Assembly (NCBI GenBank): GCA_944386725.1
Contig: CALXCE010000001.1
Coordinates: 20,162-84,161 of the forward strand
DNA length: 64,000 bases
Direction of reading: 5' to 3'
Origin: an uncultured Clostridia bacterium
GTDB lineage: Bacteria > Bacillota > Clostridia > TANB77 > CAG-508
This document shows, piece by piece, positions 35,519 through 38,368 of the stretch. Numbering within the stretch: the stretch's first letter is position 1; each line of letters begins with the position of its first letter. The notes below the pieces were generated by a model. That model had not been told where the DNA came from, did no database searches, and was given only the letters and a program-made list of their open reading frames with translations. The position numbers and the translations under genes are program-made.

Positions 35519-36271
35519 TTAACTTATTTTTTTAGTTTTTTCTACTGTAATATCGCCAAATAACTCTTCTTGACTTGTCTCTACTTTACTTCTTCTTGAT
35601 AATTCTAGTAATCCAGAAAAAGCAGTAACTATTTCTTGTTTATTATGTTGTTTAATAGAAAATAGTTTATTGAAAACAAATCTTTTTTGTTTTACTAAAA
35701 CCTTATACATTTCTTTTACTTTACTTGCTACTGTATAATTATCAGTAATTGCTATTTTTTCTATGTTTTTAGCATTTTGATTTAATTTAACATTATTTCT
35801 TTCTATTATTTTTTTATAAATATCTGGTATTATATTATTTTCATAATTTTTTTCTAATTTTTGTTTTGGTAATTCTATTTCCTCTTGTCCTTTAAAATAT
35901 CTCCTAGAAAAGTCAAGATAATTGTTCCTCAATGTTTTACTAATTTCTTTAAATTTCTTATATTCTATAATTCTACGAATTAATTCTTCTTCTGTTAATT
36001 CCTCTTCTTCTTCCTCTTGTTTTGGTAATAGATTTTTAGATTTTAGATATAGTAAAGTAGAAGCCATCACTAGAAATTCACTTGCTATTTCTAGATTTAA
36101 CTTCTCTTGTTCCTTCAAGTAGTCAATATACTGGTCTGCAATTTGGCTTAAGTTGATATCATAAATACTCATCTTATTTTTGTCAATCAAATGACATAAT
36201 AAATCTAATGGTCCTTCAAAACTTTCAATTTTAATTGCATATTTTTTTGTTTCTAATGTTAAGATTGCCAT
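35519..36271 (-). CDS. scpA: Segregation and condensation protein A
   Basis: 250 aa; FEGPLDLLLHLI-type N-terminus (FEGPLDLLCHLIDKNKMSIYDI). Confidence 0.85.
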   Translation of the reverse strand: MAILTLETKKYAIKIESFEGPLDLLCHLIDKNKMSIYDINLSQIADQYIDYLKEQEKLNLEIASEFLVMASTLLYLKSKNLLPKQEEEEEELTEEELIRRIIEYKKFKEISKTLRNNYLDFSRRYFKGQEEIELPKQKLEKNYENNIIPDIYKKIIERNNVKLNQNAKNIEKIAITDNYTVASKVKEMYKVLVKQKRFVFNKLFSIKQHNKQEIVTAFSGLLELSRRSKVETSQEELFGDITVEKTKKIS

Positions 36272-36281
36272 GTTCTTCTCC

Positions 36282-36725
36282 TTATTTTTCTATTGCTTTG
36301 TTTATATTTTCTAATTTGTATCCCTTTTTTAACAAGAATTGTTTTATTTTTTCTTGCTCCATGGATATGGATTTTTTATATAAGATATTTTCTGCTGATT
36401 TTATTTCATATTGTTCTAATTCTTCTCTATGTTCAAATATATAATCTTCTATATCATTTTTGCTTAATCCTTTTGCCATTAATTTATATTGCATTTCTTT
36501 TATAGAGAAATTTTTCAATAGCATAAAATTATGAACAGTTTTTTCGATAAATTCTTTATCATCAATATATTTTGCTTCTTTTAAATATTCTATAATGTTT
36601 TCTAGCATATTTTCATCGATTGTCGTTAAAAATTTATTACGTACTTCTTGTTCTGTTCTTTTTTTGTATAGAATATATTTTAATACTTTTGTTTTTTGTT
36701 TATCAAATTCTTCTATCGTATACAT
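36282..36725 (-). CDS. recX: RecX-like regulatory protein
   Basis: 147-aa helical-repeat ORF downstream of recA; assignment by size, composition and synteny. Confidence 0.6.
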   Translation of the reverse strand: MYTIEEFDKQKTKVLKYILYKKRTEQEVRNKFLTTIDENMLENIIEYLKEAKYIDDKEFIEKTVHNFMLLKNFSIKEMQYKLMAKGLSKNDIEDYIFEHREELEQYEIKSAENILYKKSISMEQEKIKQFLLKKGYKLENINKAIEK

Positions 36726-36783
36726 ATTTTTCCTTTCTTTTTTCTCATTTTACTATAATTGAGAAAAAATAGCAAGATAATTT

Positions 36784-37248
36784 TAATTTTTTGAGTTTCG
36801 GTTTTTTTCATCATGTGATGCCAGCCCTTTGTGGGGTGAAGATGGTTGGATTTTTAAAATTACCGCTTGATTGGAACGAGAAATAGAAATTGTTAAGTAG
36901 AAAAATGAGGAATATTCAGGGCAATTGCTTATTTCTATATTTTTCATAAATTCTTCGGTTCCCTACATAAGCAAAGAAATTCTAAAATCATTTTATGGCA
37001 CCCTTCCACGCACAAGGCGTGAACTCTTTCCATAAAATAATTAAAGAATTTCTAAACTTATTTTGGGTCACATTTATCATTTATTCAAAATATAGAAATA
37101 AGGAATTGAGCATGAAAGAGGCTCATCTTCCTACTATACAATTTCTTTTCAAAGTGGAGTGAATAAGGTGATTTTAAAAATCCAACCATCTTCACCCCAC
37201 AAAGGGCTGGCATCACATGATGAAAAAAACCGAAACTCAAAAATTTTA
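36784..37248. mobile_element. 465-bp foldback (MITE-like) element: ~75-bp perfect terminal inverted repeats, imperfectly paired interior, apex hairpin CACGC-ACAAG-GCGTG
   Basis: Arms TTTTTGAGTTTCGGTTTTTTTCATCATGTGATGCCAGCCCTTTGTGGGGTGAAGATGGTTGGATTTTTAAAAT read on both ends; candidate 7-bp TSD TTTTAAT; no ORF of 60 aa or more inside. Confidence 0.75.
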
Positions 37249-37258
37249 ATTTAAGTTA

Positions 37259-37300
37259 AAGGCTAAATAAACAATATATATCACTTATTTAGCCTCTCAA
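37259..37300 (-). terminator. Rho-independent terminator after recA
   Basis: AGGCTAAATAA/TTATTTAGCCT stem then T-rich tract on minus strand. Confidence 0.55.
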
Positions 37301-37315
37301 TAAATTATTTAATTT

Positions 37316-38368
37316 TTACTTTTCTGTATCAGCGTCTTCAGCACCTGGTAATTCTTCACCTAGACTTTGCTCAAAAGCTTTTGCAAAGTTTTCTCTTACT
37401 TTTGTTTCTACTTCTTCTAGGATATCTGGATTATCTTGTAAATATTTTTTAACATTTTCTCTACCTTGACCAATTCTTTCTCCATTATAACTAAACCAAG
37501 AACCTGCTTTCTCGATAATGTCTAAATTAACAGCCATATCCAAAATGTTACCCGCTTTCGAAATTCCTTCTCCGTAAACTACATCAAATTCTGCTTCTCT
37601 AAATGGTGGTGCTACTTTATTTTTTACTACTTTAACACGCACACGACTTCCTTTAAATTCTCCATCTTGTTTGATATTTTCTGTTTTTCTGATATCCATT
37701 CTAACAGAAGCATAGAATTTTAAGGCTCTACCACCTGTTGTTGTTTCTGGATTTCCAAACATAACTCCAATTTTTTCTCTTAATTGGTTAATAAAAATTA
37801 AGACCGTTTTCGATTTGTTAATTGCTCCTGCTAATTTTCTTAAGGCCTGTGACATTAATCTTGCTTGTAATCCCATATGGGAATCTCCCATGTCACCATC
37901 AATTTCTGCTTTTGGTACTAAGGCTGCAACAGAGTCAACGACAATAACATCTAGTGCTCCACTTCTTACTAAGCTTTCTGTAATTTCTAATGCTTGTTCT
38001 CCTGTATCTGGTTGAGATACAATTAAATTATCGATATCTACACCTAATTTTTTTGAATATACTGGGTCTAGTGCATGTTCTGCATCAATAAATGCTGCTT
38101 CTCCTCCCATTTTTTGTGCCTCAGCAATAATGTGTAATGCTAATGTTGTTTTACCAGAAGATTCTGGTCCATATATTTCTATAATTCTACCTCTTGGTAC
38201 TCCTCCAATTCCTAATGCAATATCTAAGCTTAAAGCTCCTGTTGGTATTGCTTCTATTTCCATGGCTTTGAATTCTCCTAATTTCATGACAGAACCTTTA
38301 CCAAATTGCTTCTCAATTTGGCTCATAGCCATCTCTAATGCCTTCTTTTTTTCTGTATTTTCTTCCAT
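37316..38368 (-). CDS. recA: Recombinase RecA
   Basis: 350 aa; GPESSGKTT Walker [10 protein letters not shown], canonical RecA sequence throughout. Confidence 0.97.

Follow-up and report, generated by a model that had tools for sequence, protein, structure and literature searches.

Repeats of the Correia/NEMIS, ERIC/IRU, BOX, RUP, and bcr1 types are imperfect palindromes of 100 to 200 nt, often cotranscribed with their neighbors, that can be modular (as BOX is) and that insert beside promoters and terminators. Among bacterial mobile elements, IS10 and IS50 make 9-bp duplications, and HUH enzymes of the IS200/IS605 type insert without target duplication. Bacterial MITEs derived from insertion sequences (ISs) of the IS4 type (DDE_Tnp_1) have been reviewed (PMC10969869, PMC3184786), and RAYT genes have been described whose long flanking TIRs also form repeat families (Di Nocera et al. 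2013, PMC3733652). A foldback of 452 to 465 bp that separates the recA terminator from the recX promoter in the window (the whole 64,000-nt stretch analyzed here) is very probably a nonautonomous transposon (MITE) of an IS4-like insertion sequence. The locus comprises the following features.

36282 to 36725, minus strand: recX (Pfam).
36747 to 36775, minus strand: recX promoter candidate TTGCTA-N17-TAAAAT, listed by the promoter scan and kept in congeners.
About 36789 to 37242, no strand assigned: putative foldback MITE proper, about 452 to 454 bp, with termini TTTTGAGTTTCGG...CCGAAACTCAAAA and borders good to 1 to 2 nt owing to T/A runs.
36788 to 36860, plus strand: left perfect arm, 73 bp, the outermost 17 to 19 nt or so being the IS4-type terminal repeat (TTGAGTTTCGGTTTTTT).
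37007 to 37021, no strand assigned: apex hairpin CACGC-ACAAG-GCGTG, whose letters vary among copies while the pairing is kept.
37171 to 37243, minus strand: right perfect arm, 73 bp, matching the left arm in reverse complement.
37260 to 37295, minus strand: presumed recA terminator hairpin, with an 11-bp stem and a 14-nt loop (AGGCTAAATAA...TTATTTAGCCT), after the recA stop codon and outside the element.
37316 to 38368, minus strand: recA (Pfam).

A repeat search of the window returned arms of 87 nt (36778 to 36864 and 37167 to 37253) that are 95% complementary. The preliminary description of this DNA had reported perfect terminal arms of about 75 bp, an imperfectly palindromic interior with its apex hairpin, and no ORF of 60 aa or more, all of which hold: the longest perfect arm measures 73 bp, the sequence inward of the perfect arms continues as an imperfect palindrome down to the apex (displaced by one base from where it was first placed), and the longest ORFs within the element encode 54, 55, and 51 aa. 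The arms had also been called unusually GC-rich; they are richer than their surroundings (37% G+C for the arm and 52% for its CATCATG...GGTTGG part versus 29% for the window), but only moderately so. The element is predicted to fold as one long rod on either strand, with energies of -224 and -235 kcal/mol and z scores against shuffled sequences of -21.5 and -27.5 for the two strands.

Within its own genome (G000; an assembly of 1.2 Mb and 29% G+C in 35 contigs, 92% complete), the element is one of a dispersed set: 13 termini are present at about 10 loci, contrary to the possibility, raised in the preliminary description, that there would be no other copies. The second full copy, at C5:45502-45938, is 78% identical to that in the window, and there are three shortened copies (C5:5920-6198, C14:18348-18624, and C19:14771-15105) and two solo arms of 70 nt (one on C3 and one on C16). 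The C14 copy lacks one half of an inner inverted repeat, both halves of which are present in C5:45502, and the shorter forms look like deletions when their sequences are compared; those of 277 to 279 bp and the solo 70-nt arms probably arose by palindrome-stimulated deletion. A blastn search of the element against plasmids and phages yielded zero matches.

Repeats of this element break MAG assemblies, and four contigs of the own genome (C22, C27, C31, and C32) stop inside it. They may also yield flipped contigs. In the first 248 positions of a contig from one other sample (ENA ERZ28614680), the recX-side half of the element matches the opposite, recA-side half in reverse complement (98.8% identity); the interior thus appears flipped between the perfect arms, through a genuine inversion at the 73-bp inverted repeats or as an artifact of the de Bruijn graph. 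Contig C35 (3,034 bp) of the own genome has a G+C content of 55.6%, versus 29% for the genome, and may be an rRNA fragment or contamination.

The copy in the window is bounded by an exact direct repeat.

36779 to 36789, no strand assigned: left flanking direct repeat AATTTTAATTT (presumptive target-site duplication, 9 to 11 bp), exact over 11 nt, at offsets 6/6 from the anchors.
37242 to 37252, no strand assigned: right flanking direct repeat AATTTTAATTT, exact over 11 nt.

Duplications were sought around the anchors TTTCGG/CCGAAA with a slack of 0 to 10 nt, and the null distribution was drawn by the same procedure from AT-rich random sites. Around three of the four complete copies, exact direct repeats lie about 6 nt outside the anchors, with consistent spacing: 11 nt in the window, 9 bp (ACATAAAAT) at C5:5920, and 8 bp (AAAATACA) on C19. 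The fourth matches at 7 of 9 positions, as judged by eye. Under the null, the probability of a direct repeat is 0.019 for at least 8 nt, 0.006 for at least 9 nt, and 0.0017 for at least 11 nt. The 7-bp duplication TTTTAAT proposed originally is indeed common to both flanks, but the exact repeat extends to the 11 nt of AATTTTAATTT, and since that repeat runs into the T/A stretch of the inverted repeat, the duplication around the window copy can be sized only to between 9 and 11 bp. Two other palindrome families of the same genome (families A and B), which served as a control, have no such flanking direct repeats.

The ends of the element lead to a parent insertion sequence. Its outermost 17 to 19 nt or so read TT[A/G]AGTTTCGGTTTTTT, and the terminal motif TTAAGTTTCGGTTTTTT, with at most one mismatch, is present in 38 of the genus's 121 genomes; the reversed pattern, searched as a control, is nearly absent. 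An inverted pair of the motif bounds elements of 1.3 to 3.2 kb in four congeners: copies in G512 (C3) and G007 (C13) are intact, with an ORF of 423 to 437 aa, and those in G043 and G534 have, respectively, a frameshifted ORF and an ORF disrupted by another IS. The encoded protein matches DDE_Tnp_1 (PF01609; 3e-13, 50.4 bits, cutoff of 23) and contains LDRGY, with the second D, and Y-x2-R-x3-E-x6-K within LYMNRWRIEEYFKFKK, which is the IS4 signature Y(2)R(3)E(6)K around the catalytic E, read as L-Y-MN-R-WRI-E-EYFKFK-K. Its best resemblance among NCBIfam models is to the IS4 family, at 45 bits, and the IS701 and IS1634 models also match weakly; because the IS4 score lies below the cutoff of 160, "IS4-like" is a tentative name for the parent family. 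Copies of the parent are flanked by 9-bp duplications (TTGAATAGT, ATGTTAAGT, and, at 8 of 9 positions, AATAGATA). One congener, G256, has two foldbacks of about 450 bp whose termini and core are as in the element, whose arms are different, and whose 9-bp duplications are AAATACTTA and ATCATTTTT.

Copy numbers of the terminal motif vary within the genus. G023 has 28 copies, and the 2.0-Mb genome of G544 has 103, a burst of this IS/MITE family. In G572, several motif pairs lie just 200 nt or so apart and constitute a shorter MITE form.

The sequence common to the element and the IS is limited to the 17 to 19 terminal nucleotides, and the rest of the arms is unrelated. Only the tips of the element thus derive from the IS, and the remaining 400 bp or so are layered palindromic cargo with an oriented, structured center. 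The terminal 20 nt or so of the arm are also the sole part that recurs in other genera, and an exact 30-nt arm pattern (TTTCGGTTTTTT..CATCATGTNATGC) had 0 matches in the genomes of other species and 0 in JGI metagenomes. With respect to the transposase, searches of the own genome for DDE_Tnp_1 (PF01609) and rve (PF00665) gave no match, tblastn of the IS4-like protein against the same genome gave a best E value of 1.3, and tblastn against plasmids gave no match. The copies in this species are therefore probably orphaned, insofar as this can be read from an assembly that is 92% complete and from MAGs, in which IS copies are often lost.

The ends of the element are the terminal repeats of the IS, and we infer that an IS4-like transposase mobilized it in trans in an ancestor. 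Its flanking duplication is as expected of a transposase that makes target cuts about 9 bp apart, and it landed in AT-rich DNA lying after the recA terminator and ahead of the recX promoter. The insertion would date to an ancestor of the species, after its split from the sampled congeners. The 10 or so copies are now probably immobile relics, because the assembled genome has no matching transposase.

A second candidate parent was rejected. An HTH/rve-like ORF of 479 aa on G195:C47 is flanked by two copies of the terminal motif, at 3978 to 4008 and 5697 to 5731, but these are direct 22-nt repeats (TTTTTTTGAGTTTCGGTTTTTT) and not inverted ones. The inverted repeats that belong to this ORF lie inside the pair of motif copies; the G195:C47 IS therefore inserted into a preexisting motif, and the direct repeat around it points to a target duplication of uncommon length or to an IS that targets the motif. 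Neither this protein nor an ISLre2-like or IS110-like protein has a homologue in the own genome.

The recA-recX loci of congeners represent empty sites. Fourteen congeners have recA followed by recX, and none of the 14 spacers contains the element, so that relatives do not share the spacer sequence, as the preliminary description had allowed they might. Eleven of these spacers measure 28 to 188 nt, and the other three, at about 860 to 950 nt, have unrelated inserts. These inserts of about 0.9 kb, in G006, G012, and G016, are seemingly ORFs rather than repeats, and that of G016 translates into a KMD/RFDK-repeat, coiled-coil-like stretch. Within the species, the element lies upstream of an identical RecX in contigs from all six other samples, and therefore the insertion looks fixed. 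Five of the six contigs are 99.5 to 100% identical to the window, most break inside the element, and no presence/absence polymorphism of the insertion was seen among these six samples. Fixation in all sampled members of the species is what would be expected of an ancestral, nonmobile spacer or a local palindromic duplication, but we consider such an origin extremely improbable given the 14 congener spacers that lack the sequence, the 10 or so dispersed copies, the flanking duplications, and the existence of a parent IS. The MITE interpretation, which the preliminary description had favored from the arms and interior, draws instead on the full set of observations: the element is small and noncoding, has terminal inverted repeats and target duplications, exists as multiple dispersed copies, ends in the termini of an autonomous IS family found in congeners, and has empty sites in relatives.

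The element occupies exactly the gap between the recA hairpin and the -35 hexamer of the recX promoter (TTGCTA, 36775 to 36770), and its end is only a few bases upstream of that hexamer. Several of the short congener spacers share one layout, in which the recA stop codon is followed by a hairpin, then by a promoter (TTG(C/A)TATTT-N-TATAGTAAAAT) and a ribosome-binding site ahead of recX. This layout is fully kept in the own genome, where scpA comes after recX (Pfam). The hairpin at 37260 to 37295 was not called in a strict terminator scan, and its position matches that of the terminator hairpin of congeners. A promoter scan restricted to positions 36200 to 37500 of the window found promoter-like sites to be no more frequent than in shuffled sequences. 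Since congeners have both a hairpin and a promoter between the two genes, recA and recX were transcriptionally separate before the insertion, which hit the gap between these signals. The earlier proposal that the element might uncouple recX is accordingly unneeded, and because the genes already have separate transcription signals, its local effect on them is probably small. The insertion would have added about 460 bp to the spacer and brought the A-rich end of a MITE close to the upstream side of the recX -35 hexamer. Any transcription continuing past recA would yield RNA that folds as a very long hairpin.

The interior of the element consists of two further layers.

36863 to 36953, plus strand: left middle half ("left type"), 88 to 97% conserved in other copies and 77% complementary to the right half.
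36939 to 37092, minus strand (the better-folding, or sense, strand): central cargo module of about 150 nt, with internal loop A, stems P1 to P3, a 6x6 purine loop, stem P4, and the apex.
37079 to 37169, plus strand: right middle half ("right type"), 86 to 94% conserved in other copies.

The preliminary description had called the interior diverged, implying decay, and the middle layer contradicts this. The left segment (positions 80 to 170 of the element) is 96 to 97% identical to the left segments of C27 and C31 and 88 to 92% identical to those of C5 and C14, but it matches its own right half at only 77%; the right segment is 92 to 94% identical to the right segments of C19, C22, and C32. The asymmetry between the halves is thus conserved between copies, and the mismatches were therefore already present in the master copy. 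Homologues of the left-type layer also occur in G256. G019 has the middle layer together with the core at about 71% identity, and in G014 the core is accompanied by part of the middle layer at about 70% identity; in G019 and G014 these lie within other outer arms.

The central module has a variable outer stem, followed inward by a large internal loop (in the better-folding strand, GAATGTGAYTGGAGA on the 5' side and CGTAWTGARCCGAGGAAT on the 3' side), stems P1 to P3, the 6x6 purine loop AAAGAG/AGGGTG, P4, and a variable apex. A profile of the center scores 135 bits in one orientation versus 22 bits in the other, and the module is therefore oriented and not a plain palindrome. In 37 of 38 core copies, the predicted fold of the sense strand is more stable than that of the complement (9 kcal/mol on average), and the sense-strand stems contain 28 G·U pairs versus 3 A·C. 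Over 31 copies, stem positions are paired in 86% of cells versus 74% in shuffles, and 21 of the 31 module pairs vary at both positions. Covariation scores 0.348, compared with 0.150 in shuffled controls (none of 500 attained 0.348) and 0.07 to 0.12 when partners are slid; the covariation and strand-bias counts come from related copies and do not represent independent events. RNAalifold on a plain MAFFT alignment recovers the inner stem only, and the outer stems were projected from a single-sequence fold. The purine-rich internal loops are conserved across subfamilies of the module, which a covariance model places in 93 of 301 genomes of the order, representing 14 of 43 genera, and all copies examined are intergenic.

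A second subtype of the core, at G000:C12:20949-21135 and C5:45502-45938, has the same loop A and P2 and a different center (...ATAACTATACCCGAAAACAGGACC...), and the central part of the module seems to be exchangeable. The conserved pattern of loop B and the apex also appears on a viral or proviral contig (IMGVR_UViG_3300045988_149678, 11984 to 12031).

The strand preference, the covarying stems, the excess of G·U over A·C, the conserved purine loops, the breadth of the module in the order, and the fact that its better-folding strand in the window is also the recA/recX strand could all be accommodated if the element, or at least its central 150 to 330 nt, were a functional structured RNA (a cis-acting insulator or stabilizer, or a small RNA gene) with the transposon ends as a mere vehicle. 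We regard this as unlikely, also in the form of the long structured RNA that the preliminary description had named as the alternative to a MITE. Palindromic DNA keeps its pairing without any RNA role, G·T wobble fits a single-stranded DNA form equally well, and the covariation and G·U bias, although both are seen, can in large part be produced by palindromic DNA and the shared ancestry of the copies. The orientation of the core relative to neighboring genes, moreover, is even (18 same and 17 opposite), whereas a cis-acting RNA from the upstream gene would show a bias. Orientation relative to the leading strand is likewise unbiased (7 of 19). No conserved promoter is evident by eye or from the scan described above, and Rfam covariance models gave no match to the element beyond two chance-level hits (E = 0.78 and 0.97).

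The module is not confined to elements with IS4-type ends. The own genome has more than 100 self-complementary segments belonging to several families, of which family A (about 325 nt, with GGGGACGTTTC arms) numbers 20 foldbacks, 12 or 13 of them full length and with a paralogous core; the core model detects the family A cores over their full length. Three Y1_Tnp genes are present in this genome: that on C23 is bracketed by family A arms, that on C13 (G000:C13:9073-9417) is bracketed by family B arms, and that on C5 adjoins a family E arm. With Y1 genes bracketed by A or B arms, the arrangement corresponds to the TIRtron/TIRYT organization of PMC3733652. The window itself contains a family A-type core, a paralogue of the central module, at 14320 to 14467 (a full-length match of 82 bits to the second-round profile), as well as three family B palindromes within 4.6 kb (19457 to 19547, 21881 to 21969, and 23894 to 24019). 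Each family B arm (GGGACAAGGGGACGTAGATAATGTCCC) is a small hairpin with GTAG.

These systems bring up another origin for the element, namely, as a REPIN/TIRtron-type palindrome that was moved, like the GGGGACG palindromes of the genome, by one of the three Y1 (RAYT/TIRYT-like) single-stranded DNA transposases. Precedent exists in the RAYT genes with long TIRs and the TIR repeat families described in PMC3733652, the genome has the three Y1 genes with their flanking family A, B, and E arms, family A has a paralogous core, and the arm of the element contains GGGGTGAA, one base off the GGGGWSAS motif of that paper. Nevertheless, the arms of the element (TTAAGTTTCGG...) are absent beside all three Y1 genes of the own genome, the element family has duplications of 8 to 11 bp that are lacking in families A and B, and the termini match those of a DDE IS instead, which makes mobilization by a Y1 enzyme very improbable.

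Four further core-bearing palindromes have arms that are single copy in the own genome, and one of these sites bears on where such arms come from. At the site in G006 that is orthologous to C3:57822-58038, arms and core are absent together, and a small GGGACG hairpin is present instead. Arms are thus brought in as part of the element rather than copied from neighboring DNA, and the idea that they form by inverted duplication of the flank was not supported. The same stop codon is followed by a 217-nt core-bearing palindrome in G000 and by the small GGGACG hairpin in G006 (G006:C5, about 1000 to 1060), which suggests a hot spot shared by different palindromic repeats.

The core is always found at the exact center of arms that are otherwise unrelated, whether of the IS4 type, of the TIRtron type, or single copy as in the four palindromes above. 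This position would follow if the module were an independent mobile element that inserts into the centers of palindromes (hairpin loops), making the 465-bp element a nested insertion, and both vehicles do have core-less forms (C14:18348-18624 and C2:21501-21633), and the central part of the module can differ around an unchanged loop A and P2. However, the core-less C14 form resembles an asymmetric deletion of a longer palindrome rather than an empty target, the whole architecture of about 450 bp is conserved between G000 and G256, arms and core are jointly missing at the one orthologous empty site examined (that of C3:57822-58038 in G006), and neither an enzyme nor a junction signature was found. 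Nested insertion is, in our estimation, quite doubtful, somewhat more so than an RNA function for the element.

There is a modest chance, still well short of even, that the central module (or the middle layer of about 330 nt plus the core) is under selection for a function of its own as an active structured nucleic acid, whether RNA or single-stranded DNA, and rides in two mechanistically unrelated vehicles (the IS4-type DDE MITE and the Y1-transposase TIRtron palindromes) as well as between single-copy arms. Taken alone, a MITE at this site is ordinary genome archaeology. The parent IS accounts for a whole set of palindromes of about 450 bp in the genus and provides a testable pair of transposase and ends, and the element illustrates that a MITE can be nearly all cargo, with just 18 nt or so per end from the IS. 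That cargo is a conserved, oriented, and covarying fold, common to the repeats of Y1 transposases and present in about one-third of the sampled genomes of the order, and on these grounds it may be a structured RNA or DNA module of an undescribed kind. If it has such a function, it would represent an undescribed class of hitchhiking structured element, spread across an order of small-genome gut Clostridia, rather than MITE filler DNA.

Like the MITEs derived from IS4-type insertion sequences, the element is small, noncoding, multicopy, and intergenic, and its terminal inverted repeats and duplication length match those of the autonomous IS. Unlike them, it owes only some 18 nt at each end to that IS, its interior is an IS-unrelated layered palindrome of 400 bp with a conserved asymmetric structure and a cargo module common to other repeat classes, and its parent is absent from the host assembly. 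As a long, hairpin-forming intergenic repeat, it also resembles the TIR repeats of TIRtrons/TIRYTs and the REP/REPIN-RAYT systems (PMC3733652), and its own genome has three such systems (families A, B, and E), with a core paralogue in family A, but no Y1 gene is flanked by its arms, target duplications border it, and its termini are those of a DDE IS. From the Correia/NEMIS, ERIC/IRU, BOX, RUP, and bcr1-type repeats, which it resembles as a modular, imperfect palindrome beside a promoter and a terminator and to which it is unrelated in sequence, it differs in its much greater length (about 450 bp), its concentric layers, and a core with strand-specific fold signatures that is common to mechanistically different vehicles.
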